A program made the translations under genes and the position numbers. From an uncultured bacterium (GTDB taxonomy: Bacteria > Patescibacteriota > Microgenomatia > Levybacterales > UBA12049): a stretch of 64,000 nt of DNA. The stretch is taken from NCBI GenBank assembly GCA_963826535.1, contig CAWGXL010000010.1:426814-490813 (forward strand), in the 5' to 3' direction. Shown here one piece after another: positions 20,319 to 63,551 of the stretch. The notes under the pieces were generated by a model, which had not been told where the DNA came from, made no database searches, and worked only from the letters and a program-made list of their open reading frames with translations. The first letter of the stretch is position 1. Each line of letters starts with the position of its first letter.

Positions 20319-21179
20319 ATGAAAAACTCAATAATCATTTTACTAGTAGCTATATTATCACTAGCGGTCTCGTTTATTGGAACTAGAATTTTTTTAACAA
20401 ACACAGATCAAAACCAAGACCTTTTAGCTAAAGTTTTGGACCGTGGAGAAATTCGAGCCGGGTATATCGTCTATCCTCCATCATTTATTAAAGACCCGGC
20501 TACAGGAAAGATGTCAGGTATTACTTACGATGCTATAGAAAAAGCGGGTAGAAATCTTGAACTTAAAATAAATTGGGTAGAGGAAACAGGTTGGGGAACC
20601 ATGATTGAAGGCTTAAATACCGAAAGATATGACATTGTTGTGAGTGGAATATGGCCGAACTCTGTACGAGGAAAAAATGCTGACTTTACAATCCCTTTAT
20701 ATTACAGTGCAGTTGGCATTTATACACGTACCAATGATGATCGTTTCTACGAATTAAGTAAAATAAATAATAAAGATGTAACTATCGCTACAATTGACGG
20801 CGAAATGTCATCTTTTATCACTAAAGCAACATTTCCGAAGGCTAAGACTCTTTCCTTGACACAGGATGCACAGATTTCCCAATTGTTGCTTAATATAAAA
20901 ACCGGAAAAGCTGATGTGACTTTTGTTGAAACAGCAATAGCCCAAGAATTTCTAGCAAACAATCCTGACTCGATAAAAAATATTGTACCAAACAACCCAA
21001 TACGATCCTTCGGTAACTCTATTCTTGTACCGAAAAATCAGGAGGGTTTCAAATCAATGATGAATACTGCTCTCGAAGAATTATTTAACAGCGGGTACAT
21101 AGATGAATTACTAAAGAAATACGAAAAATATCCCGACTCATTATATCCGGTAGCGAAGCCATATGCCACTCCCATCTAG
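20319..21179 (+). CDS. ABC transporter substrate-binding protein, polar amino acid family (paralog 1)
   Basis: N-terminal signal anchor plus family-3 SBP fold. About 75% identical to paralog 2. Confidence 0.7.
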   Translation: MKNSIIILLVAILSLAVSFIGTRIFLTNTDQNQDLLAKVLDRGEIRAGYIVYPPSFIKDPATGKMSGITYDAIEKAGRNLELKINWVEETGWGTMIEGLNTERYDIVVSGIWPNSVRGKNADFTIPLYYSAVGIYTRTNDDRFYELSKINNKDVTIATIDGEMSSFITKATFPKAKTLSLTQDAQISQLLLNIKTGKADVTFVETAIAQEFLANNPDSIKNIVPNNPIRSFGNSILVPKNQEGFKSMMNTALEELFNSGYIDELLKKYEKYPDSLYPVAKPYATPI

Positions 21180-21206
21180 CTCACTATGATATAATCCATT
21201 AAGTCT

Positions 21207-22067
21207 ATGAACACTACAAAAACAATTCTACTTGTAATCGTAGTGGCGCTAATTACATCTTTAATCGGAGTCAAGATTTTTTCCGACAACACAAGCAAAA
21301 AGGAAGACCTTTTAGCCAAAGTTTTGGCAAAAGGTGAAATTCGTGCTGCATATTTCATATATTCGCCGACATTTATTAAAGATCCCAATACTGGAAAATT
21401 CTCTGGCATTTTCCATGACGCTCTCGAAGAAGCTGGGGGGAACCTCAACTTAAAAATTAATTGGGTTGAAGAAGTCGGCTATGGCGAGATGCTCGAAGGT
21501 CTGAATGCCGGGCGATACGATATTATTGGGAGTAATGTATGGCCTAACTCAACACGTGGGAAAAATGCGGACTTCACTATTCCATTATATTACAGCGGGG
21601 TTGGTATTTATACCCGTACTGGTGATGACCGTTTCTCTGACTTAAGTAGTATAAATAATAAGGAAGTTACAATCTCTACAATTGACGGCGAGATGTCCTC
21701 CTTCATTGCCAAGACAACTTTTCCGAATGCCAAAACGCTCTCACTACCACAAAATACACAGTTTTCACAAATATTGCTCAATATAAAAACTGGTAAAGCA
21801 GACTTAACTTTTGTGGATGAAGCAATAGCCCAAGAATTTTTAGCTAACAACCCGGACTCAGTGCAAAATATTGTGCCAGGTAATCCAATCAGGTACTTTG
21901 GCAACACTATAGTTGTACCGAAAAATCAGGAAGGGTTCAAATCAATGATTAACACTGCTCTGGAAGAGTTGTTAAACAATGGATATATAGATGAATTAAT
22001 AAAGAAATACGAAAAACATCCCGGCTCGTTATATCCGGTAGCAAAACCGTATACTCCGCCTAATTAA
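21207..22067 (+). CDS. ABC transporter substrate-binding protein, polar amino acid family (paralog 2)
   Basis: Tandem duplicate of 20319-21179. Same length (286 aa). Confidence 0.7.
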   Translation: MNTTKTILLVIVVALITSLIGVKIFSDNTSKKEDLLAKVLAKGEIRAAYFIYSPTFIKDPNTGKFSGIFHDALEEAGGNLNLKINWVEEVGYGEMLEGLNAGRYDIIGSNVWPNSTRGKNADFTIPLYYSGVGIYTRTGDDRFSDLSSINNKEVTISTIDGEMSSFIAKTTFPNAKTLSLPQNTQFSQILLNIKTGKADLTFVDEAIAQEFLANNPDSVQNIVPGNPIRYFGNTIVVPKNQEGFKSMINTALEELLNNGYIDELIKKYEKHPGSLYPVAKPYTPPN

Positions 22068-22074
22068 TTCATAT

Positions 22075-22935
22075 ATGAATATAAAAACTATTTTACTCGT
22101 TGTTATAGTTGCTATTATTGCTTCTTTTGTGACGTCCAAAATTTTATCGGATAAAACATATAATTCGAACAACATGCTGGATACAGTTTTAGAAAAAGGA
22201 AAAATCCGAGCTGCATATTTAGTCTATCCGCCGTATTTTATTAAAGACACTAAGACCGGGAAATTTTCAGGCATATTTTACGATATAACAGAGTTATTAG
22301 GTAAAAAACTTGATCTAAAAGTAGAATGGACTGAAGAGGTTGGCTTTGCGGATATATTTACAGGTCTTGACAGTGGACGCTATGATGTTTTTGCAGGAGG
22401 ACTCTGGCCCGGCGCAACTCGCGCAAAAGCCGGATATTTCTCAACTCCCGTTTTTTACAGTCTAATAAAAGCCTGGGGAAGAGCCGATGATCATAGGTTT
22501 GACAACAATCTCGCGGCTATTAATTCTCCAAACGTTCATATTTCCACTATAGACGGAGCAATGGAGGATATTATTGCCAAAGCAGATTTTGAAAAAGCAC
22601 AAAGAGAATCATTGCCCCAACTAAGTCCATTTACACAAAATTTTCTAAATATTACCTCTGGCAAGGCAGACGTTACATTTGCAGAACCTTCTTCTGTTCA
22701 CTTCTTTTTGAAAAACAATCCAGGCACACTGAGAGAAATCGCTCCGAACCAGCCATTACGTATATTTGGAAACAGCCTAGTCTTAAAAAGGGGGGAAGAT
22801 GAATTTAAGCAGGTGATTGACGCAGCCATCGATGAAGCCGTCTTTAGCGGAGAGATAGATAAGATTTTAAAAAAATATGAATCTTCTCCGGATGAATTCC
22901 CCAGACCCGCACTTCCTTATGCCCAGACTAATTAA
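22075..22935 (+). CDS. ABC transporter substrate-binding protein, polar amino acid family (paralog 3, divergent)
   Basis: Same length and architecture. About 40% identity to paralogs 1 and 2. Confidence 0.65.
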   Translation: MNIKTILLVVIVAIIASFVTSKILSDKTYNSNNMLDTVLEKGKIRAAYLVYPPYFIKDTKTGKFSGIFYDITELLGKKLDLKVEWTEEVGFADIFTGLDSGRYDVFAGGLWPGATRAKAGYFSTPVFYSLIKAWGRADDHRFDNNLAAINSPNVHISTIDGAMEDIIAKADFEKAQRESLPQLSPFTQNFLNITSGKADVTFAEPSSVHFFLKNNPGTLREIAPNQPLRIFGNSLVLKRGEDEFKQVIDAAIDEAVFSGEIDKILKKYESSPDEFPRPALPYAQTN

Positions 22936-22938
22936 CGC

Positions 22939-23604
22939 ATGAACGTAATAGATATCATAATTAATTTTAGAGAAGCTCTTGTCGCTGGACTTCTTGTCAC
23001 TTTAGGATTATGCCTTATTGTTTGGCTATCAGGCATGATATTTGGCGTGCTCTTTGGTTGGCTTGCTCACCGTAAACAAGAAAATGTCGGATACGCTTTA
23101 AAAATTTCGTCATTTCTTTTAGCAAGTATTCCTCTTCTGGTTTTATTATTTTGGCTTCACTACCCACTCCAAGAATTGTTAGGAGTTGTAATTATTCCAT
23201 TCATCACAGCGGCAGTAGCTCTTTCACTTCTAAATATCGTTAGTGTTGCCCAAATAGTAAGAGACGTGCTTGCTGAATTTCCGGAGGAATACAGAATAGC
23301 AGGAAAAGTTTGCGGACTTTCAGAAAAAGAAATTTTTGCCAAAATAGAATTCCCGATTATCTTTCGTCAAATCATTCCTCAATTTCTGACCCTGCAAGTG
23401 AACATGCTCCAAATGACTTTATTTGCAAGTCTTATTTCTGTTGAAGAAATCTTCCGCGTTGCCCAAAGAATAAATTCAATGATTTACAAACCTGTCGAGA
23501 TTTATACAGCGCTCGCGATCTTTTTCATTGGTATCTGTCTGCCCCTAAATATTCTTGCCTACTGGCTGAAAAACAAATACACGAGAAATTTATCTGAAAA
23601 ATAA
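22939..23604 (+). CDS. ABC transporter permease (polar amino acid, HisM/GlnP-like)
   Basis: Five or six TM helices. EAA-like loop ...SVEEIFRVAQRINS. Confidence 0.7.
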   Translation: MNVIDIIINFREALVAGLLVTLGLCLIVWLSGMIFGVLFGWLAHRKQENVGYALKISSFLLASIPLLVLLFWLHYPLQELLGVVIIPFITAAVALSLLNIVSVAQIVRDVLAEFPEEYRIAGKVCGLSEKEIFAKIEFPIIFRQIIPQFLTLQVNMLQMTLFASLISVEEIFRVAQRINSMIYKPVEIYTALAIFFIGICLPLNILAYWLKNKYTRNLSEK

Positions 23605-23605
23605 T

Positions 23606-24325
23606 ATGCTACAAGCAACTAACATTACAAAATCAATAAATGGCAGAAGTATACTAAAAGACGTTTCACTTTCGCTGAAAAGCGGAGAAATAGTTTCCAT
23701 AATCGGCCCCAGCGGAGCAGGAAAAACTAGTTTACTTCGGGCAATCTCATTGATTGATCTGCCAAACTCCGGCTCTTTGACTATTGGAAAAGAAATCTAT
23801 CAATTCCCCATAATTCAAAGTGAATTGCTGAGATTGCCATACCCTGATTTAACAGTTGTATTCCAACAACTCTTTATCTGGCCGCATTTAACAATCAGAC
23901 AAAATCTCACCCTTCCGCTGAGAGAAAATATTGACCAAAAACACTTTAAAGAAATGACTGCATTGTTCCAAATGAATTCGTTTTTAGATAGGTATCCGAA
24001 CGAAGTATCTCTAGGCCAACGCCAAAGAGCCGCACTCGTACGCGCTTTATTACTAAAACCAAAATATCTCCTGCTCGATGAGGTAACCTCTGCTTTAGAT
24101 ATAGAACAATCACATCTTATCCTAAGTCACCTCAAGCATATTGCCGAAAAGGGTGTTGGTATAATGTTTGTGAGCCACGCACTGCATTACGTCAGCAAAA
24201 TCAGCGATAAGGTTATCTTTCTCGATAATGGATTAGTTTCAGAAGAAGGAAAAAACGACATTTTGACTAAACCAAAAACAGAGCGGCTGAGAAAATTTAT
24301 TAAAGTTTCCCAACAAATTTTTTAA
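23606..24325 (+). CDS. ABC transporter ATP-binding protein
   Basis: Walker A GPSGAGKTS, signature LSLGQRQRAALVRAL, Walker B LLLDEVTSALD, H-loop FVSHA. Confidence 0.85.
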   Translation: MLQATNITKSINGRSILKDVSLSLKSGEIVSIIGPSGAGKTSLLRAISLIDLPNSGSLTIGKEIYQFPIIQSELLRLPYPDLTVVFQQLFIWPHLTIRQNLTLPLRENIDQKHFKEMTALFQMNSFLDRYPNEVSLGQRQRAALVRALLLKPKYLLLDEVTSALDIEQSHLILSHLKHIAEKGVGIMFVSHALHYVSKISDKVIFLDNGLVSEEGKNDILTKPKTERLRKFIKVSQQIF

Positions 24326-27384: not shown

Positions 27385-28119
27385 ATGAAGAACATACTAA
27401 GACGATTAAAACTAGCAGGCATTTTATCTACCTCCCAAGAAAAATCAGAAAATCCAACTATCTCCTCATTTAATTCAATTCCGCAAGCTGGCATTGAAAC
27501 AAAAAATGACAATTTTACAGCAACATCCAGATCGTTCAATAGAAAAATTAAAAAATTTATCAAAAATTCCGCGTTTATTCCATTCGCAATAATATTATTG
27601 CTAGTTATTTTAATTGGATATTATTCAATAAAAACCCTTACTAATACTCAACCATCTTCCACCCTTGGCATAGATGATCAGCGTATAGAGATACAAAAAC
27701 CAAAAAGCCAACAGCAACTAAATAGACAATTCTTATTCCCGCTAAAAGGCACTGATGGCAAAGAAGTTAGTAAATTAAAATTTAGCTTACAAAACTCCGA
27801 ACTCCGTGATGAAATTATAATTAAAGGACAAAAAGCGACGGCTGTACAGGGAAGAACTTTTCTTATTCTAAATTTAAAAATTACGAATGATTATAACAAG
27901 GCTATTCAAATAAATGCCAGAGACTACCTTCGTCTGCAGGTAAATAATTCATCTGAAAAATTAGCCCCTGACATCCACAATGATCCGGTAGAAATACAGG
28001 CAATCTCGACCAAATATACCCGCCTCGGCTTTCCTATCAATGATATTGATAAAAATTTACTTTTACAGGTTGGAGAGATAACATCAGGTAAGGAATACAT
28101 AAAGTTAGATCTAAAATAA
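27385..28119 (+). CDS. Membrane-anchored hypothetical protein (DUF4352-like)
   Basis: N-terminal TM. Beta-rich C-terminus QGRTFLILNLKITN...YLRLQV resembles DUF4352. Confidence 0.35.
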   Translation: MKNILRRLKLAGILSTSQEKSENPTISSFNSIPQAGIETKNDNFTATSRSFNRKIKKFIKNSAFIPFAIILLLVILIGYYSIKTLTNTQPSSTLGIDDQRIEIQKPKSQQQLNRQFLFPLKGTDGKEVSKLKFSLQNSELRDEIIIKGQKATAVQGRTFLILNLKITNDYNKAIQINARDYLRLQVNNSSEKLAPDIHNDPVEIQAISTKYTRLGFPINDIDKNLLLQVGEITSGKEYIKLDLK

Positions 28120-28125
28120 ATTTCA

Positions 28126-28302
28126 ATGAAAGATTATTCATCCAAACAAATAAGCCAACAATTAATTGAAGAAATAGCTGAAGCGTTAAAAAATATTCGC
28201 GGATGGGGAAGTGTAGAAATCTTCGTACAGGATTTTAAAGTTGTACAAATTGTAGAAAGAAATATCAAAAAAACTCACATTCATGCATCCAATAAAAACT
28301 AA
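28126..28302 (+). CDS. DUF2292 (YezD-like) small protein
   Basis: 58 aa ORF MKDYSSKQISQQLIEEIAEALKNIRGWGSVEIFVQDFKVVQIVERNIKK. The GSVEI.VQD.KVVQI core is the family signature. Not in the ORF track because it is under 60 aa. Confidence 0.55.
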   Translation: MKDYSSKQISQQLIEEIAEALKNIRGWGSVEIFVQDFKVVQIVERNIKKTHIHASNKN

Positions 28303-28322: not shown

Positions 28323-28350
28323 TTGACAAACCATCAACATTTCGTATATA
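28323..28350 (+). promoter_or_regulatory. Sigma70-like promoter
   Basis: TTGACA (28323-28328), 16-nt spacer, TATATA (28345-28350). Confidence 0.4.
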
Positions 28351-28436
28351 TTATTATAGTTCTTATATTTTTCTAAAAATTCTTAAAAAATATTAGAAAA
28401 TTGACAAAATAAATTACTATTGCTGACCGCAAACGG

Positions 28437-28486
28437 AGGCATCTTTTAATGAGTTTACTCAAGCTCATTAAAAGATGCCTTTTTTG
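28437..28486 (+). terminator. Strong rho-independent terminator
   Basis: Perfect 17-bp inverted repeat AGGCATCTTTTAATGAG/CTCATTAAAAGATGCCT, 10-nt loop, followed by T6. Confidence 0.7.
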
Positions 28487-28720
28487 GTAATTGTAATTTG
28501 TATTACAGAATTAATTAATAATAATGCCTAATATAAAGGACATGAAGATGGATTTGTTAAAAATATTTCTACAATCTCATCAAAAAACGGGGGCTTTTCA
28601 AGCTAACACAGATTAGCTTGAGAAGTATCCGTTTTTTTTGGGGTAAACAGCCAGAAAACGGAGAAGGAAGTGCCTCGATTTAATCGGGGATCTCGGTCAA
28701 GAAAGGAGGTGAATTATATA

Positions 28721-29950
28721 ATGACATTTAAAAAACGATTTACAACAGCCATTGCAACCGGAGCAGTCTTACTCAATGCATTGGCGCCAGTAGCTCTAGC
28801 AGAAGAAATTCATGTTACTGGCAACGGCGCGTTCTCAAATAGCACTGTCAATTTATCAAGTGATAATGCAACAGTAGTTAATCAATCGAACAACGCCAAT
28901 GTTACCAACAACGTTTCATCAAATGCATCAACCGGCGGAAATTCAGCCAGCTTCAACACTGGAGGAGATTCTAGAATAGTTACCGGAGATGCAACCACCA
29001 ACGTAGACATTTCTACAGCAGTCAACCTTAATAAAGCTGTGTTGGAAGACTGTGGAAACTGCGAAGGCGGTGATCTTAATGTTAACGTCACAGGTAATGG
29101 TGCGTATTCAGAGAACGATGTTAACGTAACAAAAGATAATTTAGTTAGCGTGTCACAAGAAAATGATGCGGACATCGACAATTATGTAGATGCCAAAGCC
29201 AACACTGGTAAAAACGATTCAAGTTTTAATACCGGTGGCGACAGTATCATTGTGACCGGAGACGCAGAAACCAATGTCACAGTCGACAATAAAGCAAATG
29301 CAAATTTAGCTAGTATCGGCGGCGGCACTGGAACTTCAAACGGTTCTTGGGTCAATGTAACCGGCAACGGTGCATTTAGTGACAACGACGTAGATCTTAA
29401 TTTAGGATCAGCAGTTGTGCTGGATCAGTACAATAATGCAGACATCCATAATTATATCAACGCAAAAGCAAACACAGGTAAAAACGACGCAGCGTTCAAC
29501 ACCGGCGGAGAGACAGTATTAGTCACCGGCGATGCTACAACAAATGTTGAAGTTGACAATCTTGTTAATTTCAATAAAGCAAGCGTTGGCTGTGATTGCA
29601 TCCTTGGAGAATTAGGAGTAAAAATTGCAGGTAACGGTGCCTACTCAGAAAATGATGTAGATGCCGACACCTTCAACGAACTCTTTACCTTCCAGGATAA
29701 TTATGCTGATCTTTACAACGATGTTTACGGCAATGCAAAAACCGGACACAACGACGTAAGCTTTAGCACAGGTGACGTTAATGGCGACCCACTCATCTCA
29801 ACAGGTGACGCGTGGTCTGGTACATCAGTATCAAATGCAGGAAACGTCAACTGGTTCAGTGATGGCAACAGCCTTCACCTTCCAGGGGATTGGGAAGTTA
29901 ATGCTCATTGGGATCTAGAAGATCTTTTGAGCTTTCTCCATCTAGGATAA
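28721..29950 (+). CDS. Secreted N/S/T/G-rich repeat protein 1 (four ~90 aa repeats)
   Basis: RBS AAGGAGGTG. Signal peptide MTFKKRFTTAIATGAVLLNALAPVALA. Repeats VTGNGA[FY]S.ND...NTGG[DE]..[IV]VTGDA.TNV. Confidence 0.75.
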   Translation: MTFKKRFTTAIATGAVLLNALAPVALAEEIHVTGNGAFSNSTVNLSSDNATVVNQSNNANVTNNVSSNASTGGNSASFNTGGDSRIVTGDATTNVDISTAVNLNKAVLEDCGNCEGGDLNVNVTGNGAYSENDVNVTKDNLVSVSQENDADIDNYVDAKANTGKNDSSFNTGGDSIIVTGDAETNVTVDNKANANLASIGGGTGTSNGSWVNVTGNGAFSDNDVDLNLGSAVVLDQYNNADIHNYINAKANTGKNDAAFNTGGETVLVTGDATTNVEVDNLVNFNKASVGCDCILGELGVKIAGNGAYSENDVDADTFNELFTFQDNYADLYNDVYGNAKTGHNDVSFSTGDVNGDPLISTGDAWSGTSVSNAGNVNWFSDGNSLHLPGDWEVNAHWDLEDLLSFLHLG

Positions 29951-30081
29951 TCTTTGAACGGTAGCGGTGTCTGTCTAGCACTTCAGATAGACACCCTACC
30001 AATCAAGATAAATTTAACAAATGTCATTGCGAGAAGCAAAACGACGAAGCAATCTATATAAATAAATAATTAACAAAAACT

Positions 30082-32430
30082 ATGAAAAATTTAAACAAAA
30101 TATTAAGAAAAACTTTTACACTATTTTTAATATCAATACTTCTTTTGTACTCTACGGTACCAGCTTTAGTTATTGCGGAAGAACCAGTACCACCCACCGC
30201 TCCTGAGGCACCTGTTGTAAATGAAACTCCACCTGAAAATCCTGCACCACCCGAAATACCTCAAGCCCCGTCACAAACGGCAAGTAATGATTCTCCAAAT
30301 GATCAATCTAGTCCTTCGGAAACCACCGATACAAATAATTCTGACAATGAACAAAATACAGTACAAAGCCAGGAAGACAAAGATCGTGAAGCAAAAAAGA
30401 AAGCCGCAGGAGAAGCATTTATCGCCAACTATCATAACTCGACACCGGGCAGCACAAATCCCGGCACAGGCACTTCGTCTAATGGGAATGTTGGCGATAC
30501 CACGCTCGCAACAGGAAATGCAACCAATAATGGCTCAAGTGTAACAACAGGCAACAACAATCTTCAATCTGGAAATCAATCAGCAGGTTCGGCAACAGTT
30601 GGCTCAAACAGTCATGAAGGAGCATCTATATCTAATAGCGGCAACGGAGCGGGCTCTGACAATTCCGGGACATCATCTTCTATTGTAAACAATGATACCA
30701 ACCAAAACAACGGCGCCCAAGTTAGTAACATCAACAACCAATCTTCAACCACAGGTACGAACCAATCATCTTTTAACAATGGCAACACCATCCTAAATAG
30801 CGGGGATTCCAACACCTCGGGAACAGCAATCACCGCAGTAAATACGAATGCTGACGGTGTGATGGTATCCGAATTCAACATTGCAGATGACCACAAAGGA
30901 GACATTGTATTAACTGCTGACGCATATCTTGCCAATTGCATTTCCGGTTGCGTCCACCCTGCATGGGTCAGTAATATCGGAAATGGCGCGAATTCCTCAA
31001 ATACAGCCAATGCAAATTCTACGTCTAATAGCTCAACTTTCCAAAACAACGATGCTTCTATTGGGAATAATTTGACTCTTGCCGCCAACTCCGGTAACAA
31101 CGATTCAAGCTACAATACAGGTGGTAATACTACTATAAATACAGGTGATGCAAACATTTCCGCCAACTCATTAACCTTTGCTAATAATAATATAGCCGGT
31201 AATGTCGTATATGGTGTAGTCAACATCTACGGCACACTGGAAGGGGATATAATCTTACCCGAGTATACAGTCGCTAACCCGAGCGCCGCCTTGACATCAA
31301 GTAATTCCGGGAATGGCGCCAATTCATCAAATGCAACTAATATCGCAACTGAGAATAACAACAATACATTCCAAAATAACGACGCGACTATCACCAATGA
31401 TCTACTAATAAACGCTGAAACAGGCAATAACGATTCGAGTACGAATACAGATGGCACTACCACAATTAAAACCGGACAAACTAATGTTGATGCCAATGTA
31501 CTCAATGTCGTCAATTCCAATATAAATGGAGGCACAGTTTGGTTAGTACTTATAAACGAAGCAGGTAAGTGGTTTGGACAATTACTCGGACAACCGGAAG
31601 GACAAAACTACGCCGGATCCGACGGCACCAAATTCGAGCTAAGTCCCGAAGGACAAATTACAGCTAGCCACGATTCGGGTAACACGAACGTTGCTAGCAA
31701 TAATGCCAATGGCGCAGGCTCTGAAAATAATACATCAGTTTCGACTACCAACAATAATACAACAAGTCAAAACAACGATGCCAATATTAACAATTCACTC
31801 AATCTTTCGGCCAATACAGGCGGTAATTCGACAGACTACAACACAGGCGGTAATAATATAGTCAATACAGGTGACGCAAATATAATAGCTAATATGGTTA
31901 ACTTCGTAAACAATAATATTGTAGGTAATGGAAAGCTGGTAGTTACTGTAGTAAATGTTTTCGGTAGCTGGCTAGGTGACTTTGTCGCCCCCGGCCAACA
32001 AAAACGGGAAAAACCAAACCAGTTAGCACAAAATACGAATACTGCTACTAACAATGCTGAATCAACACCAAACAACAATACAACAAAAGTTATACCCACT
32101 CCCTCAGTAACTCAAACAAACAATGGGCAAGTTGCCGGCATCTCCCAATCTGTTCAAAAATCAATAACTTCAGACTTCAAACCAAATAGTGTAAACGGAA
32201 CTAAACAAATTACTTATGTAGATGGGTACAAGGATGCCAAAACAAAAGTAGCAGGTTCCAACACCAATAAATTACTGGCAGATGCATCTTTCAAATATAA
32301 TTCATCAGATAAAACAAAAGCTATTACTATTAATTTAGCCTGGCTCCTGGTTTTAGCCCCAATAATAATTCTTATTATTGCAGGAAGATATATAATCTGG
32401 AGTAAATTTATAACCAAGCTACGTTCATGA
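30082..32430 (+). CDS. Secreted/membrane-anchored N/S/T/G-rich repeat protein 2 (Pro-rich N-region, ~4 repeats, C-terminal TM)
   Basis: Signal peptide, then PPTAPEAPVVNETPPENPAPPEIP. Repeats GNGA.SSN...QNNDA.I.N.L...NTGGN..[IV]NTGDAN. C-terminal hydrophobic anchor LAWLLVLAPIIILIIAG. Confidence 0.75.
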   Translation: MKNLNKILRKTFTLFLISILLLYSTVPALVIAEEPVPPTAPEAPVVNETPPENPAPPEIPQAPSQTASNDSPNDQSSPSETTDTNNSDNEQNTVQSQEDKDREAKKKAAGEAFIANYHNSTPGSTNPGTGTSSNGNVGDTTLATGNATNNGSSVTTGNNNLQSGNQSAGSATVGSNSHEGASISNSGNGAGSDNSGTSSSIVNNDTNQNNGAQVSNINNQSSTTGTNQSSFNNGNTILNSGDSNTSGTAITAVNTNADGVMVSEFNIADDHKGDIVLTADAYLANCISGCVHPAWVSNIGNGANSSNTANANSTSNSSTFQNNDASIGNNLTLAANSGNNDSSYNTGGNTTINTGDANISANSLTFANNNIAGNVVYGVVNIYGTLEGDIILPEYTVANPSAALTSSNSGNGANSSNATNIATENNNNTFQNNDATITNDLLINAETGNNDSSTNTDGTTTIKTGQTNVDANVLNVVNSNINGGTVWLVLINEAGKWFGQLLGQPEGQNYAGSDGTKFELSPEGQITASHDSGNTNVASNNANGAGSENNTSVSTTNNNTTSQNNDANINNSLNLSANTGGNSTDYNTGGNNIVNTGDANIIANMVNFVNNNIVGNGKLVVTVVNVFGSWLGDFVAPGQQKREKPNQLAQNTNTATNNAESTPNNNTTKVIPTPSVTQTNNGQVAGISQSVQKSITSDFKPNSVNGTKQITYVDGYKDAKTKVAGSNTNKLLADASFKYNSSDKTKAITINLAWLLVLAPIIILIIAGRYIIWSKFITKLRS

Positions 32431-32467
32431 AACTGAATGTAGCAAGCCACGTTCATAAACTGAACGT
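32417..32467 (+). repeat. Tandem palindromic units (ACGTTCA ... TGAAYGT) x2
   Basis: agctACGTTCATgaaacTGAATGT then agccACGTTCATaaacTGAACGT. Overlaps the TGA stop of the upstream gene. Related arms GCAACGTTCA/TGAACGTTGC occur at 12578-12640. Confidence 0.5.
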
Positions 32468-32593
32468 AAAAATAAACTAATCTGACCCACTTTAACAACC
32501 TGCCCACCATTAGCTGGGCCGAGTTTACCCTGTAATATACATTACTGAGTAAGATGGATAAACAATATATAAGTAAATAGAGAGACAATCTTC

Positions 32594-33772
32594 ATGAATA
32601 AAAATACAATTATTATAAATAAAATAAAAGTAAAAATATTCCTGATAATAAGCTTTATTTTGTTGACTCTGGTTGCAGCACCAATTGCAGGTGCCGAAGT
32701 GATTACAGTAACTGAAAACGGAGCTAATTCTTCAAGCGAGATAACTACCGAACAAAACAATCAATCAAACACTCAACAATCAAATAATTCAAATATTAAC
32801 AATACAGTTACTTCTACAACCGAAACTGGCAACAACAGTGCTGACAACAACACGAATGGTGATACAATTATTAATACCGGAACAGCGTCTCAAACAACCA
32901 GTATTACAAATGAAGTAAATAAATCAGCCGTAGATCAAACTTGTTGCTCAAATCTAACATCCACATCGATTAATATTTCCGGTAATAGTACAGATTCACA
33001 AAATAATGCAACTAATGTATCCTCGTCTCAAACCATTATCAATGTAATACAAAACGCTACAATAATTAACAATATCAAAGAAACTGCAAGTACCGGCAAC
33101 AATTCTGCTAATAACAACACAGGCAATGTGACTATACATACTGGTGATATAAAATCAACAAATAATATAATTAATTCGGTTAATTCAGCAAGAGTTTCCG
33201 TGCCAAATAATCACCATGAAAATTCAAGTATAAAAATATCTAATAACGGTCATGAATCTGAAAATAGCGTGGTGATCGAAGATAACAAAAGCACAAAAAT
33301 ATTAACTAACAATTCAGTCAATATCAAAAATGATATCAATTCAATTTTTAAGACTGGAAATAATACTGCCGAAGGAAATATAGGCACAATTGATATAAGA
33401 ACCGGCGATATAAAAGCCAAAACAGTCATCCAGAACGATCTAAATATTAACAAAGTAGATCTAATATGCTGCAATCCAAAACAGGTGAAAGAAAAACCGG
33501 TTACCGAAAAACCACAACCGCAACCTCAACCCACACCAAATATCCCTCCAACCCAGCCTACCCCGAATAATCCAACGATTTCTCCACCGTCAGGCCCATC
33601 AAATCCCACAACACAAATTGGACAAGTAGCAGGAGTTGCCTTGAGCTCCCTTCCCACAACCGGCAATAACTGGTTATTCTTTTCATTACTTGGAAATATT
33701 ATAATGCTATTTTTAGGTGCCTATTTAAGACTGCGATCCGGTAATTCACCTGGCTTTGCATTCACTTCCTAA
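32594..33772 (+). CDS. LPXTG cell-wall-anchored repeat protein 3
   Basis: Signal peptide. Same repeat family with CC pairs. Pro/Thr-rich stalk PQPQPTPNIPPTQPTPNNP. Sorting signal LPTTG, then hydrophobic segment, then RLRSG. Confidence 0.75.
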   Translation: MNKNTIIINKIKVKIFLIISFILLTLVAAPIAGAEVITVTENGANSSSEITTEQNNQSNTQQSNNSNINNTVTSTTETGNNSADNNTNGDTIINTGTASQTTSITNEVNKSAVDQTCCSNLTSTSINISGNSTDSQNNATNVSSSQTIINVIQNATIINNIKETASTGNNSANNNTGNVTIHTGDIKSTNNIINSVNSARVSVPNNHHENSSIKISNNGHESENSVVIEDNKSTKILTNNSVNIKNDINSIFKTGNNTAEGNIGTIDIRTGDIKAKTVIQNDLNINKVDLICCNPKQVKEKPVTEKPQPQPQPTPNIPPTQPTPNNPTISPPSGPSNPTTQIGQVAGVALSSLPTTGNNWLFFSLLGNIIMLFLGAYLRLRSGNSPGFAFTS

Positions 33773-33779
33773 TTGCCCG

Positions 33780-33803
33780 GCGGACGCGATGTCCGCTTTT
33801 TTT
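33780..33803 (+). terminator. Rho-independent terminator
   Basis: GCGGACgcgatGTCCGC followed by T7. Confidence 0.7.
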
Positions 33804-33867
33804 ATGCCTTTTCAAATAATAATGATACAATTTGATATAATAGTACCACATTTATTTTAAAAATTAT

Positions 33868-34431
33868 TTGACTATGCACAAAAGAATAAATTTTCATCTA
33901 GGTAATCTTTTACTTATTTTATCCATTATCGGTTTCGTATATACACTTTACCCACTCATACAAATCTACTTTTTCCCACCAGCACTCAAGCAAATCCAAT
34001 TGCAAAAAGGTACATTTTTAACTATTCCCAAAATCGCGGCTCAATCGTCAATTATTGAAAATGTAAATCCTCGAAACGAAACTGAATATAATCAAGCTCT
34101 AAAAAAGGGTATTGCTCATGCACATGGTTCATCTCTACCAGGCAAAAACGGCACAATATTCCTTTTCGCACATTCCTCAGGATCACCTTGGGAAATCACA
34201 AGACAAAACACTATATTTCTAAGACTCGATGAATTACAAAAACACGATGCTATAGATATAACAAAGGATGGAAAAAAATTTGAGTATATTGTTCGCGAAA
34301 AAAAAGAAGTCTGGCCAAATGAAGTAAATTATCTCTTGCAAACAAGCAGAAACCAACTAATTCTGCAAACCTGCGTCCCCATCGGCACTTCCCTAAAACG
34401 CCTCCTAATCTTCGCCGAACCGGTATTTTAG
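33868..34431 (+). CDS. Sortase (transpeptidase) 1
   Basis: N-terminal TM. His in IFLFAHSSGS. Catalytic TLXTC-type motif LILQTCVP. Conserved Arg downstream. Confidence 0.7.
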   Translation: MTMHKRINFHLGNLLLILSIIGFVYTLYPLIQIYFFPPALKQIQLQKGTFLTIPKIAAQSSIIENVNPRNETEYNQALKKGIAHAHGSSLPGKNGTIFLFAHSSGSPWEITRQNTIFLRLDELQKHDAIDITKDGKKFEYIVREKKEVWPNEVNYLLQTSRNQLILQTCVPIGTSLKRLLIFAEPVF

Positions 34432-34852: not shown

Positions 34853-36373
34853 TTAATCTGATTTATCAAGTATTCGCACAAATATTCCAGCTCGATTATC
34901 TTCATAAGTCTTCTTCCACTTTCCGGACTCAACTAGCTCCTCCATTCTCTTATAGATCGGCTTACTTGGCGACATATACACAACGGAATAAGTCGATTTA
35001 TCAATATCAGCCACATTCTGCTCGTATTTATAATATTCCACAAATCCGCTATACTCATCTTTCTCCCACAAATGCATCCTGCCATCAATACTTGGCTTTA
35101 TATCCGGATAATTCCAGATCAACCACCCACCCCAACCATAAAGTGACAACAAATTTTCAGTTAGTTTATGTCGGCTTAAATACTCGGCAGATGGAGGAGA
35201 GCACATTGTATTATTACTATTACAATAAACCTCCCATGTAACCGACTTATAAGTACTCAATGGCCATTTTAGAAAAATGACAACAGAAATACTTAAAAAA
35301 ATTAAAACTAGCGAAAAATATAATCTATTACGCCTCGAGGATGGCGCCAAAAAGACTGCGAGCTGGACCAATATTGGAATAATTAAATAATACGCTGTCC
35401 ATGCATATCTGCGGACCTCAAAAGACAATACAAATAAAATAAACGCCGCACCCATAATTGGCAATGAGTCTTTTAACCTACCGTTAAAGTATATAAAAAT
35501 AATGCTAAAAACAACCAAAATACCAATAACAACTTGTGTCCACCAAAGCTGGGATAGAAGAGTAAAAGGTAGATACTCTGCAACATTTTGTAATAGGGGA
35601 TTGCCCAAATGTAGCAATGCGTCAAGATGTACTCCCGCTCCAAACGGATTAACAAAAGTAGCTGCAAAACTTAAAAAGAAAATGCAAATAAGATGTACCG
35701 CTTCTTTAGATACGATTTTCTTTGCCTTTTTATTTACAAAAAAATTTCTAATAATTGTAATCCCCATCCACGCCCCCAATATAGCTAATCCCAACAAAAA
35801 CTGTTCGTGAATATTTGCCCATAAAAGAAAGAGGACAGGAAGCCAATAAAGAACTTTAGAATTCTGTGTCCCGCCTGCCCCGTCGAATGACTTGGGGTCG
35901 TATGACTGGGATGGCTTGTAACGGCTTAAAACTAAACACATAAGGCCCGTCATCAAAAGGCTTATTTGCTGTCCACGCAAAGACACGGAGTTTATGGGAC
36001 TTTCAAGATATACAAACAAAGGAAAAAGTAATGCCTTGTCTACCAATTGAAATTTTGCAGCCTTCGCGAAAAAATAAAATGTTAAAGTAACGATTGCGGC
36101 TGCAGCAAGTGTTAGTCCAAAAAACCCACCGCTGCGAAATGCTGCATAAGTGATAACATCCGTACCCCACTGTCCATTCGCCCACTTAAAATCGGGCATC
36201 GTCGTGGAAAATATATTATCCCGCAAGATCTGACCATGTTGGAAAAAATACTCTCCGTATTTTAAATGCCATCCCAAATCAGGATCAGTAGGGATATACA
36301 ATGAAGCTATAAAAACAAAAGCAAAAGGCAAAATCCCAACAACCTTTTCGAAATAATTCCAAAAACTCCTCAT
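34853..36373 (-). CDS. Polytopic membrane protein with C-terminal soluble domain (possible glycosyltransferase/DUF)
   Basis: 506 aa, more than 10 TM helices. No diagnostic motif. Confidence 0.35.
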   Translation of the reverse strand: MRSFWNYFEKVVGILPFAFVFIASLYIPTDPDLGWHLKYGEYFFQHGQILRDNIFSTTMPDFKWANGQWGTDVITYAAFRSGGFFGLTLAAAAIVTLTFYFFAKAAKFQLVDKALLFPLFVYLESPINSVSLRGQQISLLMTGLMCLVLSRYKPSQSYDPKSFDGAGGTQNSKVLYWLPVLFLLWANIHEQFLLGLAILGAWMGITIIRNFFVNKKAKKIVSKEAVHLICIFFLSFAATFVNPFGAGVHLDALLHLGNPLLQNVAEYLPFTLLSQLWWTQVVIGILVVFSIIFIYFNGRLKDSLPIMGAAFILFVLSFEVRRYAWTAYYLIIPILVQLAVFLAPSSRRNRLYFSLVLIFLSISVVIFLKWPLSTYKSVTWEVYCNSNNTMCSPPSAEYLSRHKLTENLLSLYGWGGWLIWNYPDIKPSIDGRMHLWEKDEYSGFVEYYKYEQNVADIDKSTYSVVYMSPSKPIYKRMEELVESGKWKKTYEDNRAGIFVRILDKSD

Positions 36374-53346: not shown

Positions 53347-53691
53347 TTAAAGTTCCTGTAGAATTACTATAGCGTCACCTAAATTATCGTAATATTCAAC
53401 TTTAAGAATGTGCACGCCCTCGGTAAGTGTGACTGTTGGTGTATATGTTGTAATATCATGGTCAGTCCAATCATCTACGAGTAATTGGTCATCAACCCAA
53501 AATCGAACACCGTCATTTGATTGAAGGCTAAAAGAATAGTCACCAGCCGCGAATTGTTTCTCCTTAATCCATCGGGCTGAAAACTGATCTACATTTACTA
53601 ATGGATCCGGCGAGCCTGCACCCCAATTAAAATTAATTTGTGCGTCCTGACGAGTCAGAACTGGAGCGCCCGTCAATGCGATATTATTGAA
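53347..53691 (-). CDS. PA14 domain protein, C-terminal fragment truncated at the compositional junction
   Basis: NIALTGAPVLTRQDAQINFNWGAGSPDP...DQFSARW...GDYSFSLQSNDGVRFWVDDQLLVDDW is a canonical PA14 fold. The apparent N-terminus MLEPGLLHF is antisense of the fumC start region, so the true 5' end is missing. Confidence 0.6.
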   Translation of the reverse strand, partial: FNNIALTGAPVLTRQDAQINFNWGAGSPDPLVNVDQFSARWIKEKQFAAGDYSFSLQSNDGVRFWVDDQLLVDDWTDHDITTYTPTVTLTEGVHILKVEYYDNLGDAIVILQEL

Positions 53692-55114
53692 ATGCAGCAA
53701 ACCAGGCTCGAGCACGACTCGCTCGGGCCGGTGCCGGTCCCGCGGACCGGCTGTGGGGCGCGCAGACCGAGCGGTCGCGCACCCATTTCGCGATCGGCGA
53801 CCCCGACGTCTACCGGTGGCCGCGCGGCGGTGATTCGCGCGTTCGGCTGGTCAAGGCCGCCGCCGCCGATGCGAACCTGCAGCTCGGGGTGATCGACGCC
53901 GACGTCGCCGCGCTCATCGCGCAGGCGTCGCTGGAAGTGGCCGCCGGCGAGTGGGACGCGAGTTCCCGCTCGGCGTGTTCCAGACCGGCTCGGGCACGCA
54001 CACGCAACATGAACGCCAACGAGGTGATCGCCAACCGCGCCAATCAGCTCGCGCGGCGGCGCGCTCGGCAGCGTATCGGCCCGTGCACCCCAACGACCAC
54101 GTGAACCGCGGGCAGTCGTCGAACGACGTGTTCCCGGCCGTCATGCACCTGGCGACGCTCGAGGCGCTCGAACGGCTCGAGCCGGCGGTCGCCGCGCTGC
54201 GCGGCCGCGCTCGTGCGAGTCACGCCGCGCGCTGGCACGACCTGCCGATGCTGGGCCGCACGCACCTGCAGGACGCCACGCCGATCATGCTCGGCGACGT
54301 CGTGGCCAGCTGGACGGCGCAGATCGATCAGCGCCTGGACGCGGCTGGCGCAGGCGCGGCGCGGGCTGCACGCGCTGCCGCTCGGCGGCACTGCCGTCGG
54401 CACAGGGCTCAACGCGCCATCGCGACTTCGGGCGCGCTGGCGATCGCCGCCTGGCCGACGCGACCGGCTATCCGCTGCGCCAGGCACCGAACCTGCCCGC
54501 GGCCCTCGCCGCGCACGACGCCATGGCGACGGTGAGCGCCGCGCTGCGGGCCTGGCCGGGGCGCTCTTCAAGATGGCCAACGACATCCGGCTTACGCGTT
54601 CGGGGCCGCGCGCGGGCCTGGGCGAGCTGCGGCTGCCGGCCAACGAGCCGGGCTCGTCGATCATGCCGGGCAAGGTGAACCCCAGCCAGTGCGAGGCGCT
54701 GACGATGGTGGCGGTGCACGTCTTCGGCTGCGACGCCGCCGTGGCGTGGGCCAACGCCCAGGGTCCGCTGCAGCTGAACGTCTACAAGCCCGTGATCCTC
54801 CACAACGTGCTCGAACCGGCGCGGCTGCTGCGCGACGCGTGACGTGGCGTTCACACGCTACTGCGCTCGACGGGCTCGAGCCGGGCCGGCGCGCATCGAG
54901 GCGCATCTGCAGGCCTCGCTGATGCTCGTGACCGCGCTCGTGCCGCACATCGGCTACGACCGCGCCGCGAAGTCGCGCTGGCGCCCATCGCGAAGGACGC
55001 GCGCTGCGGGAGGCGGCGGTGGACTCGGGCGTGGTGAGCGCGGACAACTTCGACGGGTGGGTGCGCCCGGCGGAGATGGCGCGTCCCCATGGCCCGAAAG
55101 TGGCCGGGGACTAG
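53692..55114 (+). pseudogene. fumC: Fumarate hydratase class II (fumC-like), reading frame broken by at least 4 frameshifts
   Basis: [85 protein letters not shown] and LVTALVPHIGYDRAAK are found across frames 1, 0, 2, 0, 1. Confidence 0.7.
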
Positions 55115-55136
55115 CTCTGCAGTGATTTCCGGCGGC

Positions 55137-55430
55137 CTACTGGCCAGTGTAGGACATCATCCCCAGACCGATCAGCCAGGCGGCCAGCCAGATCTGGGCC
55201 ACGGCAACGAAGAAGTCCTTGCGCGTCTGGCGCACCGGATCGTCTTCGTGCGTGTCGTGGTGCGTGTCGTGTGACATCAGTGGTTCCCCCAGGGCGAGTG
55301 ACGTGTCGCTTATGAGCACAGGGTGTGCCAATTCAGAACGCGCGAAAAACTGGGATTTCGGCGTGTATTGTCTCCCCCAGTGGGAACTTGTCGTAATACC
55401 CCCGTGAAACGGGCACCTCACTTCTTCCAT
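55137..55430 (-). CDS. Small His-rich membrane hypothetical protein
   Basis: MSHDTHHDTHEDDPVRQTRKDFFVAVAQIWLAAWLIGLGMMSY; one TM. Weak. Confidence 0.25.
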   Translation of the reverse strand: MEEVRCPFHGGITTSSHWGRQYTPKSQFFARSELAHPVLISDTSLALGEPLMSHDTHHDTHEDDPVRQTRKDFFVAVAQIWLAAWLIGLGMMSYTGQ

Positions 55431-55794
55431 GTGGCCTGGATGGGCTGGCGTTAATGGAACAGCTGTAGCCCGGGAGCCAATCGTCCGCCTGGGGGTTCAT
55501 GACGTCCGCCGGTCGCCGGTCGTTCGCGCTGCTGTGGTGCGCCTTCTTCGTGAACCTGACGGTCGCGTCGCCGCCTGGTCAGGGTCCAGGCCTAGGCAGT
55601 GCCGCACCGGGATCGCCAGGGCGGAGAGCGCGTCGAGACTTTGCGGCCCCCTCTTCCAGGCGCGCTCAACGGCGCGGCCGCCGTGAGCGTCGTCGACTGA
55701 CAGCGGCTCGGCCTCTTGACAGATATCTGTTACAGATATATCTGTCACGGCTACGTCATGGAGTCCCGCACGCCTACGTCTTCTTCCCGTCCTG

Positions 55795-56253
55795 TTGCTT
55801 GCCGTTCCACTCCTGAGCCTTGCGGATGCGGGCGCTCAGGCCAAACCCGACTTCAGTGGCGAGTGGGTATTGAATCGCGCCGCCAGTCCCCTGCAAGGCG
55901 AATCGGCGGCCGTAGAGAGCAGCGTGATTCGCATCGACCATCGCGACCCCGCGTTCACGTTCAAGCGCACGTTCGTGGTCAAAGGCCAATCGTTGGACGC
56001 CTGGGTATGTGATTCAGACGGACGGCCGGGAAGTGACGTCGAGTGCTCGGGGGCCTGTCGTGCGCGATCGCGAATGGAATGGCAGGGCGCGACGTTGTTG
56101 CTCAGCGCATTCATCACCGGCCCGCGCGGCGAGGTGAGCAACATCGTGCGCTACGAACTGCTGGACGGCGGGCGGGTGCTGCGGGCGGTCGAAGAACCTC
56201 GGTGGTGCCGCTCCGGGTCCACCACAACGTCTCGATCTACGAACGGAAAGTGA
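55795..56253 (+). CDS. Secreted hypothetical protein (PDFSGEW N-terminal motif); start uncertain, possible upstream frameshift
   Basis: Signal-like LLPVLLLAVPLLSLADAGAQA then KPDFSGEWVLNR. A candidate ATG at 55755 is out of frame. Confidence 0.35.
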   Translation: MLAVPLLSLADAGAQAKPDFSGEWVLNRAASPLQGESAAVESSVIRIDHRDPAFTFKRTFVVKGQSLDAWVCDSDGRPGSDVECSGACRARSRMEWQGATLLLSAFITGPRGEVSNIVRYELLDGGRVLRAVEEPRWCRSGSTTTSRSTNGK

Positions 56254-56570
56254 CGGCGCTGACTCCGGCGGTCTTTCACGTCCTGTTGGCCCTGGTCGTC
56301 CGGGGATCGGCACGGCTACGGCATCATGCAGGACATCGCGGAGCATACCGGCGGCGAGCTGAAAATGGGCAGCCGAGCACATTATACTGGCACGATCCAG
56401 CGACTGATGGACCAGGGGCTCGTTCGCGAAGTGGAAATCGCCGCGGCCGCAGACGGCTCCGCGACGAACGGGCGCCGGCACTACCGGCTGACTGCCTGCC
56501 GGGCGGCAGGCGCTGCAAGCCGAGGTGCAGCGGCTGGAGCACCTGGTCAACGTGGCCCGCGGCGTAAGCC
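56250..56570 (+). pseudogene. PadR-family transcriptional regulator, 2 frameshifts
   Basis: VFHVLLALVVRG..YGIMQDIAEHTGGELKMG...GTIQRLMDQGLVREVE...GRRHYRLTA...AEVQRLEHLVN is split between two frames. Confidence 0.55.
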
Positions 56571-57314
56571 GCGTGTCAGGTGCGAAGGCCTGACTGTCGA
56601 CTCCGCTGCCGCTCAGCGTGCGCCTCTATTGCGGTCTTCTGCGGCTTTACCCGGCCGAGTTCCGGCGGTCGTTTATGCCGCCGATATCGGCCTGCCAATG
56701 TCATCGACGGATATGGCGCGGCGCGTCACGCGTCAGGAACAGTGCGTTCGCGATTTCTCTTACTGCGCGGCAACTGCTGACCTCCCGATAACACTATGCC
56801 AGGGAAGCGCTTGCCGGCAATCGGGACCGCAATGGGCGTGGCCTTCACGATTGCGGCGGCCGCAGCTGCTCTGGGGCGGCACGGTCTGGATGCTGGCGCT
56901 GGAATGGCCGGATGGGCCGGCGCGATCGTTTACTCTATCTGCAAGTTGGCGGTGTTCTCTTGGAATACTGGGCCGTCGCAGCCTGCGTGGGCGTCGTGCT
57001 GGGTCAACCGCCGCGCGCCGATCCGCCTGAATCTGGAGCAGATGAGTTAAGAGGGCCTCACTGGCACGCGGATTGAAGCCTCAGCGGTGGAGGACTATCC
57101 AATGGAGCCAACCCCACCGCACGCGACGCCGAGGCCAGAACGAGATCCCATCGACGTCGATCCGGATCTTGCGACTGCCAGGAACGACCAGACCGATCAG
57201 GACGTGGACACGGCGGGAACCGAGGCCGATGAGCCGGCCGTGGGCTCGGCGCTCGACCGTGGCGTCGAACGAAACGAGCGTCGCCGACCGGAGCCGGATC
57301 GCCCGTAACCCTGT

Positions 57315-57851
57315 ATGAGGTCGGAGGAAATCATGAAGAACGAGCTGGCCGAGTTTTACGCGCTGATCGAGGAGCTCGACACCGCGATGATGACGACACG
57401 TCAGCGTGACGGCCATCTGCGATCGCGGGCGATGGCGAATCAGAAGCCCGCTGAGGGTGCCGACCTGTGGTTCGTGACGCTGGAGCAGAGTCCCAAACTG
57501 GCCGACCTGGCCTGGGACCCGCACGTCAACTTGTCCTATTATCGCGACCGGAACCGCGAATGGGTTTCTGTCTCTGGTACCGCCGAGATCTCGCGGGACC
57601 GCGACAAGATTCGTGAACTGTACGCGACCGATTGGCGGATCTGGTTCCCCCAGGAGGGTGACCCCAGGCACGGGACCGCCGACGATCCCCGCATGGTCCT
57701 GATAGGCGTCACGGTGCATGCCGCCGAGTATCTGAAAGCAGATGCGGCCGCCCGTCGTCCTGTTCGAGGTAGTCAAAGGCTGGCTGACCGGCGCCATACG
57801 GAGCTCGGCACGATGCACCATCTCGTCGAGCCCCGGCGGCGCGAAGCGTAG
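57315..57851 (+). pseudogene. General stress protein 26 / PNPOx-like FMN-binding family protein, C-terminal frameshift
   Basis: MKNELAEFYALIEELDTAMMTTRQRDGHLRSRAMA...LWFVTLEQSPKLADLAWDPHVNLSYYRDRNREWVSVSGTAEISRDRDKIRELY. The C-terminal VVLFEVVKGWLTG continues in another frame. Confidence 0.55.
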
Positions 57852-57877
57852 CCCCGCGCGCAACGCGCCTCGACCTG

Positions 57878-59307: not shown

Positions 59308-59379
59308 TCGATACAGTTGTCGGTGCCGGTGAGGCGCCTCTGCACCAAGGCGCGGTGTGCAGTTCTGGGCGGCGCCGCG

Positions 59380-60078: not shown

Positions 60079-60102
60079 TGTGAATTGTGAATTGCCTTCC
60101 CC

Positions 60103-60912: not shown

Positions 60913-60935
60913 GGCGTGCAGCATATACTGCCGCG

Positions 60936-61739: not shown

Positions 61740-61791
61740 CCGAGGCTCAGTTCCGCGTTCTTGGCAGGCCGAAGACCGGAGACTGAAGACT

Positions 61792-63548: not shown

Positions 63549-63551
63549 TCG

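Follow-up and report, generated by a model that had tools for sequence, protein, structure and literature searches.

What does an uncultivated bacterium build at its surface with three adjacent, secreted repeat proteins and a sortase? The question is raised by a locus within a stretch of 64,000 nucleotides (nt), hereafter the window, from contig CAWGXL010000010.1 (assembly GCA_963826535.1, positions 426,814 to 490,813 of the forward strand) of a member of the Levybacterales in Microgenomatia. This is a large, entirely uncultivated bacterial class, and we know of no cell-surface component that has been identified in it. A first-pass annotation, made by a model from the sequence and its open reading frames (ORFs), had described the three proteins, here P1, P2 and P3, as carriers of an unnamed repeat, had paired P3 with the sortase encoded behind it, and had suggested a host-attachment or pilus-like system. 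That interpretation holds for the unnamed repeat and for a sortase substrate with its own sortase, but not for the pilus-like part. Our analysis indicates that the cluster most likely encodes a core cell-surface structure and not a variable adhesin. For the proposal as a whole, a core cell-envelope module of Microgenomates-type Patescibacteria in which P1 co-assembles on P2 and P3, we estimate a probability of roughly 45%; the weaker statement, that this is an envelope module linked to a sortase and made of a new repeat of solenoid type, we hold to be highly probable. The genes and their parts are as follows (aa, amino acids; TM, transmembrane):

27385..28119, + strand: single-pass TM protein of 244 aa, the conserved upstream partner of the cluster; its extracellular C-terminal domain is conserved
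28126..28302, + strand: DUF2292 (YezD-like) protein of 58 aa, matching Pfam PF10055 at 7e-8, above the cutoff
28721..29950, + strand: P1, a secreted, unanchored four-repeat protein of 409 aa
28805-29074, 29078-29344, 29345-29611 and 29615-29896, + strand: repeats of P1
30082..32430, + strand: P2, a TM-anchored repeat protein of 782 aa
30625-30891, 30961-31236, 31291-31566 and 31690-31971, + strand: full repeats of P2
about 32335-32385, + strand: C-terminal TM segment of P2, followed by a basic tail
32594..33772, + strand: P3, a sortase substrate candidate of 392 aa
32699-32959, 32963-33223 and 33224-33493, + strand: repeats of P3
33650-33664, + strand: LPTTG of P3 (aa 353-357)
33779-33797, + strand: intrinsic-terminator-like hairpin after P3, with an 8-bp stem, 5 GC pairs and a T7 tail
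33868..34431, + strand: membrane-anchored sortase of 187 aa (alternative start ATG 33874)

All four ORFs named previously (P1, P2, P3 and the 187-aa sortase) are present in the sequence at their given positions. A profile hidden Markov model (HMM) was built from the four units of P1 alone and then run on P2 and P3, where it identified four units (independent E-values 2e-6 to 6e-15) and three units (8e-9 to 7e-15), respectively, in agreement with the claim of a common repeat in 4, ~4 and ~3 copies. Likewise, self-similarity compared with shuffled sequences peaked at a lag of 90 residues in P1 (z=7), 110 in P2 (z=5.7) and 87 in P3 (z=5.0), with minor peaks at 8 and 22 residues in P1. The repeats of P2 are a ~110-aa variant with hydrophobic inserts, and the HMM also detected a weak and degenerate fifth unit towards its N-terminus (aa 114-168), P2-type members of the family typically having five repeat stretches. 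No further copies were found when the six-frame translation of the window was searched. The consensus of a unit reads xxxxxGNGAxSxNxxxxxxxNxxxTxQxNxAxIxNxxxxxAxTGxNxxSxNTGGxxxIxTGDAxxxxxxxNxVNxN, with the core A-x-TG-x-N-x-[AS]-x-x-NTGG-x3-I-x-TGDA, and the residues that are invariant in family alignments are Asn, Gln, Gly, Thr and Ala, as would be expected of ladders and tight turns. The core motif that the first-pass annotation had given is right as a description, although as a literal regular expression it returns 0 matches, also with one extra wildcard, and the preceding GNGA[FY]S is found in 4/4 units of P1 but only in degenerate form in P2 and P3. Cys pairs lie at repeat boundaries, after units 1 (C111, C114) and 3 (C291, C293) of P1 and, as CC, after units 1 and 3 of P3 (aa 117-118 and 296-297).

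That the repeat corresponds to no named domain is borne out by every resource searched. P1, P2 and P3 had no match at E<=1 in Pfam or NCBIfam, none of the 162 homologues among the matches listed (120 of P1 and 42 of P3) carried a precomputed Pfam domain, the named P1 and P3 homologues among the matches listed were all called 'hypothetical protein', and the repeat profile had no match at E<=10 among the sequences of the Protein Data Bank (PDB); in the literature, we found no paper that describes the family. Using an exhaustive profile search over 1.84 billion representatives (a word-index search gave just short proteins or fragments), we detected the repeat in 3,299 sequence clusters at E<=1e-3, 2,226 at 1e-10 and 808 at 1e-30. 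Recurring architectures were ~410 aa with four units, ~500 aa with five and ~750 aa with five, the largest forms being 926 aa with 10 units and 1,183 aa with 9 units, and natural one-repeat secreted proteins of 108-139 aa were present on long contigs (P0140, P0141, P0158 and P0123). The sources named are Levy-, Gottesman-, Davies-, Woese- and Roizmanbacteria and 'Patescibacteria group', with a few metagenome-assembled genomes (MAGs) labelled Saccharimonadales or Parcubacteria, while the many MAG titles reading 'uncultured Gammaproteobacteria' look like placeholder labels. Two small secreted proteins (P0190 and P0198) contain a shorter, related repeat of ~55 aa, VxNxVxTSANTGGNxI...TGxA...VxNxVNTNxV, with CxC between units, a hint that the 90-aa unit may have a more minimal form consisting of its C-terminal half alone.

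The P1 profile served to retrieve 80 species-representative loci, whose genes were assigned by phmmer; the denominators below are the loci in which a given position was visible. P2 followed straight after P1 in 71/71 loci, and a homologue of the TM protein preceded P1 in 73/74, with the DUF2292 protein between them in 58/74. The conserved unit hence reaches upstream, and these two proteins are partners beyond the locus as first annotated. A third repeat protein stood after P2 in 54/64 loci and was LPxTG-like in 44 of these 54, and a sortase was encoded <=2.2 kb after P2 in 48/64. Of the 64 informative loci, 47 had both a P3-type protein and the sortase, 9 had neither and 8 were discordant; among these 8, L030 is an artefact of a split P2. 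P1-P2 is thus the invariant core, and P3 with its sortase a frequent add-on. Neither a well-characterised domain matching the repeat nor a separation of P3 from the sortase in relatives, the two outcomes that the annotation had named as contrary to it, was encountered. Gene order is conserved across Levy-, Gottesman-, Davies-, Woese- and Roizmanbacteria, and in 29 related loci (L016-L081, at about 15-17 kb) a fourth paralogue is encoded after the sortase, convergently on the minus strand; this secreted protein of ~200 aa has two repeats with a CxC motif between them, and is absent from our window. In L005, L006, L012 and L021, genes for DsbB and DsbA and a small ATPase_gene1 ORF lie ~1-3 kb upstream of the TM gene, and the presence of DsbA/DsbB in these relatives is in keeping with the conserved Cys pairs that border repeats in P1 and P3.

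Measured against the window proteins in about 42 complete loci, median identity was 47% for P1, 49% for P2, 39% for P3, 52% for the sortase, 48.5% for the TM protein and 64% for the DUF2292 protein, which is the most conserved of the cluster. The TM protein is 54% identical to its homologue in L001 and had no match in Pfam or the PDB, with a weak DUF4352 match in 1/17 members. P1 holds four units and ~409 aa throughout the family, and between species repeat units at the same position were 48-55% alike, compared with 37-46% for units at different positions. This conservation is housekeeping-like and differs from that expected of host-range adhesins.

All three repeat proteins had been said to carry signal peptides, and on inspection their N-termini do have a basic-hydrophobic-AxA layout, ending in ALA before EE in P1, VIA before EE in P2 and AGA before EV in P3. 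P1 has no anchor of its own and finishes in a short conserved C-terminal tail. In P2 the Pro-rich N-terminus and the C-terminal TM segment are both evident, the repeats being followed by a low-complexity linker, an INLAW motif, the TM segment and the basic tail, and a C-terminal TM segment is found in 66/71 P2 homologues. In P3 the CC pairs, the Pro/Thr stalk and the LPTTG motif could all be read from the sequence, and its C-terminus, LPTTG-NNWLFFSLLGNIIMLFLGAY-LRLRSGNSPGFAFTS, comprises the motif, a hydrophobic stretch and a positively charged tail (YLRLRSGNSPG). With its signal peptide, passenger, Pro/Thr stalk, LPxTG, hydrophobic stretch and basic tail, P3 resembles the substrates of Staphylococcus aureus SrtA, and it is the sole LPxTG candidate in the window. 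Across the family the sorting signal has the consensus G-x-[IV]-LP[AVI]TG-[NG]-x-W and, after a run of ~17 hydrophobic residues, G-x-Y-LRLRSG-x-SP. The L, P, T and G of the motif are invariant in 37 P3 homologues, and 40/48 have the tripartite signal with an LRLRSG-like tail, YLRLRSG(R/N)SPG, a cytoplasmic tail whose conservation is unusual relative to classical LPXTG proteins. P3 also differs from these in belonging to a set of three to five paralogues in a lineage-wide cluster.

As annotated, P3 is followed by a terminator and then the sortase gene, whose product matches Pfam PF04203 at 8e-23 with 81 bits (cutoff 26.6) and TIGR01076 with 52.3 bits (cutoff 39.35). The catalytic residues H102, T168-C169 (TLxTC-like) and R178 occupy columns with 98-100% conservation when 52 cluster sortases are aligned, giving the His-Cys-Arg triad of classical LPXTG systems. 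However, unlike the sortases of those systems, it does not reach the cutoff of any NCBIfam class A-F model, with scores against cutoffs of 62/160 bits for class C, 55/165 for D, 28/160 for E and 27/166 for F. The type of sorting signal co-varies with the type of sortase: 45 LPxTG loci have sortases near that of the window (median E ~1e-57), whereas four loci of the GL[SA]xxSG type and L040 (GLSDTSSEG) have divergent sortases (E ~1e-6 to 1e-8 in comparison with that of the window). In L017, L019, L024, L040 and L086, which are of Gottesman-/Woesebacteria type, the third repeat gene (about 13.5-15 kb in each locus) encodes a protein with a non-LPxTG end and a TM stretch, and GL[SA]xxSG/GLSDTSSEG may represent a sorting motif not described before, served by a sortase clade of its own. 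The co-conservation of P3 and sortase, with a signal type that tracks sortase type, supports P3 as a genuine sortase substrate candidate with a sortase of its own. On the same co-occurrence and motif-sortase co-variation, we infer that this sortase would cleave P3 and link it to peptidoglycan. The sortase family is reported to be near-ubiquitous across Microgenomates (PMC6744442).

AlphaFold2 (AF2) was run on P1 with an alignment of 42 homologues. The resulting model was all-beta, with a mean predicted local distance difference test (pLDDT) score of 59 and a predicted template modelling (pTM) score of 0.61, and every unit had a core, ANTGxN...NTGG...TGDA, that reached pLDDT 80-88. The structural matches listed for this model were SufD (10.0), SufB (8.8), the RTX region of CyaA (9.0), the S-layer protein RsaA (8.6), UpaB (7.5), a DUF2807 protein (7.4) and a Ca-dependent antifreeze protein (7.0), then numerous adhesin and tailspike beta-helices. 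Because the alignments cover about one third of the protein and have high root-mean-square deviations, these matches denote a fold class and not homology. At that level they back the beta-solenoid that had been suggested from composition, and in this moderate-confidence model the ~90-aa repeat probably stacks into a beta-solenoid. Prediction of one repeat unit (67-sequence alignment), which had been recommended as a check, gave an unfolded model (pTM 0.24) that was unusable for fold searching, a weak indication that units depend on neighbours to stack on. We also considered the RTX beta-roll (PF00353) and rejected it, as there was no Pfam match and the Asp of NTGGD and TGDA is variable while N, G, T and A are invariant; this variability of Asp leaves no sequence-level connection to RTX.

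We propose that P1, P2 and P3 would all be exported by Sec. P2 would then be kept in the membrane by its C-terminal TM helix, with its long low-complexity linker lifting the solenoid into or through the wall, and P3 would be cut at LPTTG by the sortase of the cluster and joined covalently to peptidoglycan via its Pro/Thr stalk. P1 could be retained by homotypic solenoid-solenoid association with its anchored paralogues, the solenoids stacking end to end or packing side by side, perhaps locked by the conserved Cys pairs that border repeats. P2 would serve as partner in all lineages and P3, linked to the wall, in about three quarters of them, and P1, the most regularly built of the three, would bind or polymerise on them to form a surface coat or fibre. 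Some points weigh against this proposal. The co-assembly of P1 with P2 and P3 draws on analogy and shared domains only; the failure of AF2 on a single repeat may reflect a shallow, fragment-rich alignment; and in 9 loci both P3 and sortase are missing beside P1-P2, so that anchoring to the wall cannot be a strict requirement. It is a further and, in our view, unlikely step that a non-covalent beta-solenoid polymer of P1, templated on P2 and P3, forms the principal outer envelope structure of Microgenomatia, and we are just as hesitant to see in such a polymer a functional-amyloid-like fibre or S-layer-like coat that would found a new surface-assembly class, specific to the candidate phyla radiation (CPR) and made from a domain family lacking described relatives.

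If instead P1, P2 and P3 were independent beta-solenoid adhesins that attach an episymbiont to its host, each acting separately and without co-assembly, their surface location and anchoring signals would be explained, and the cultivated CPR bacteria are episymbionts (PMC11623550). However, P1 lacks an anchor of its own, and P1 and P2 match the sortase in their slow evolution, with length and repeat number fixed across class-level divergence. Host-specific adhesins are usually variable, so this conservation argues against such a role, and the invariant P1-P2 adjacency (71/71) suggests a joint function; we therefore regard separate adhesins as fairly unlikely. Tethering of P1 by P2 and P3 as a two-dimensional S-layer lattice would be a special case of the co-assembly proposal. 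It would suit the high conservation and lineage-wide presence of the cluster, and S-layers have been reported in some Patescibacteria, with no proteins identified for Microgenomatia (PMC13293708). Set against this are the small size of P1 for an S-layer protein (409 aa), the lack of SLH or any other known S-layer or anchoring domain in Pfam and NCBIfam searches, and the fact that RsaA is one of many generic solenoid matches, making a lattice quite unlikely.

A covalent, sortase-assembled pilus of the Gram-positive kind, with P3 and perhaps P1 and P2 as sortase-polymerised pilins, is what 'pilus-like' in the first-pass annotation would mean in the strict sense, and the sortase does adjoin an LPXTG protein and finds its best NCBIfam model in class C, at 62 bits. 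That score is far under the cutoff of 160, though, and class D scores almost equally. Only P3 has a sorting signal, no Lys is invariant or near-invariant in 37 P3 homologues, Pfam at E<=1 finds no CnaA, CnaB, FctA or other Ig-like domain, and the predicted fold class is solenoid and not Ig-like. With one sorting signal, no conserved Lys, no class C assignment by cutoff and no Ig-like domains, a covalent pilus is disfavoured to the point of being highly improbable.

A set of free and anchored paralogues, as in the co-assembly proposal, has a close counterpart in the chaplins of Streptomyces. The long ChpA-C carry a sortase signal and the short ChpD-H are secreted, and the free short forms are thought to assemble on the wall-anchored long forms in a monoderm envelope. 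Both systems comprise secreted paralogues with one small beta-rich domain in varied copy number, some sortase-anchored and some free. However, P1, P2 and P3 had no Pfam chaplin match at E<=1, the chaplin domain is hydrophobic and ~40 aa long where the present repeat is polar, N/S/T/G-rich and ~90 aa, and the cluster has in P2 a third, membrane-anchored form. Curli, with CsgA as major subunit and CsgB as nucleator, share with the cluster a short 'GNGA' motif and the logic, proposed here, of a surface-held nucleator and a free subunit, and the beta-solenoid with Asn/Gln/Gly ladders that is predicted for the repeat may be a further likeness. They differ in unit length (~22 aa against ~90 aa), there was no match to Curlin_rpt (PF07012) in Pfam at E<=1, and hhalign of the repeat profile against an approximate sequence of Escherichia coli CsgA gave 0.1% probability. 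As the organism is monoderm there is no CsgG/E/F outer-membrane secretion system, anchoring being by sortase and TM helix.

Pam pili are a CPR extracellular system reported in Saccharimonadia and Microgenomatia. Their pilins, which are Ig-like beta-sandwiches, assemble by donor-strand exchange with FimC/PapD-like chaperones, and their genes lie near those for ATP synthase, with no sortase involved (bioRxiv 10.64898/2026.03.03.709456). The cluster resembles them in being CPR-specific and extracellular, with membrane-anchored accessory proteins and no trans-envelope machine, but is set apart, by description, by its N-rich solenoid-type repeats and its sortase. Furthermore, Pfam found no Ig-like or chaperone domains in the cluster and the repeat profile matched no PDB sequence. 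Compared by description, architecture and assembly differ, and we rejected the Pam pilus as a prior account of the locus.

Sortase anchoring of an LPXTG protein is of a known kind. What is new is the domain family itself, which has no database name, its use in a fixed combination of paralogues (free, membrane-anchored and wall-anchored) within a six-gene cluster that is conserved throughout a major uncultivated class, and the distinctive conserved tail of the sorting signal. With a defined substrate and this tail motif, the cluster is a concrete candidate for the role of the near-ubiquitous Microgenomates sortase, and it offers a three-tier anchoring model of membrane, wall and free forms. Should co-assembly prove true, the cluster would define a bacterial surface polymer of a new type, and through antibodies, tags and targets for cryo-electron tomography it would help to visualise and enrich these organisms; if it is false, there is still a well-delimited new domain family of >3,000 sequence clusters, named by no database and suitable for Pfam or InterPro.

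Upstream of P1 the spacer contains the following elements:

28323..28626, + strand: P1 leader, in a ~420-nt spacer, with a sigma-70-like match and two hairpins with T-runs
28323-28352, + strand: the best sigma-70-like match of the region, within the leader
28436-28481, + strand: hairpin 1 of the leader, a perfect 20-bp stem with a T-run
28593-28626, + strand: hairpin 2 of the leader, with a T-run
28701-28710, + strand: Shine-Dalgarno sequence of P1, AAAGGAGGTG, 9 nt before ATG 28721

Because of this Shine-Dalgarno sequence and of the N-termini and ~409-aa length of family members, the annotated ATG 28721 is the better start for P1 and is preferred over GTG 28670 of the public record (426 aa). 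The two leader hairpins may be a terminator of the upstream genes, a transcription-attenuation leader for P1, or both, and an Rfam scan of the leader gave only spurious miRNA hairpin matches far under gathering scores. A scan for intergenic hairpins found no terminator-like site after P1 or P2, so P1-P2-P3 may be one transcript.

Downstream of the sortase, on the minus strand (34853-36373), lies a gene whose product, a polytopic membrane protein of 506 aa, bears a DPD motif in the first loop and matches nothing in Pfam or NCBIfam. Homologues are found <10 kb from the cluster in 16/80 loci, often adjoining the TM gene. By eye it could be a GT-C-type glycosyltransferase, and it may modify the envelope or the Ser/Thr/Asn-rich proteins of the cluster.

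Further along the window, GC content rises abruptly at ~53.6-53.7 kb, from about 0.35-0.44 to 0.70-0.77, and remains high until the window ends (53600-64000), with long ORFs in all six frames of this part. Four ORFs, three from the high-GC part and one just upstream of the break, had no match in Pfam. The 53600-64000 segment looks less like CPR sequence than like the DNA of a different, high-GC organism, joined on through a chimeric contig, bin contamination or a concatenated window. On the other side of the cluster, at 20319-22935 on the plus strand, are three tandem paralogues of 286 aa each that match SBP_bac_3 at E 1e-19 to 1e-21 and look as if one substrate-binding protein had been triplicated, here within a reduced genome; the two ORFs that follow them (22939-24325) could, by position alone, encode components of an ATP-binding cassette (ABC) transporter.

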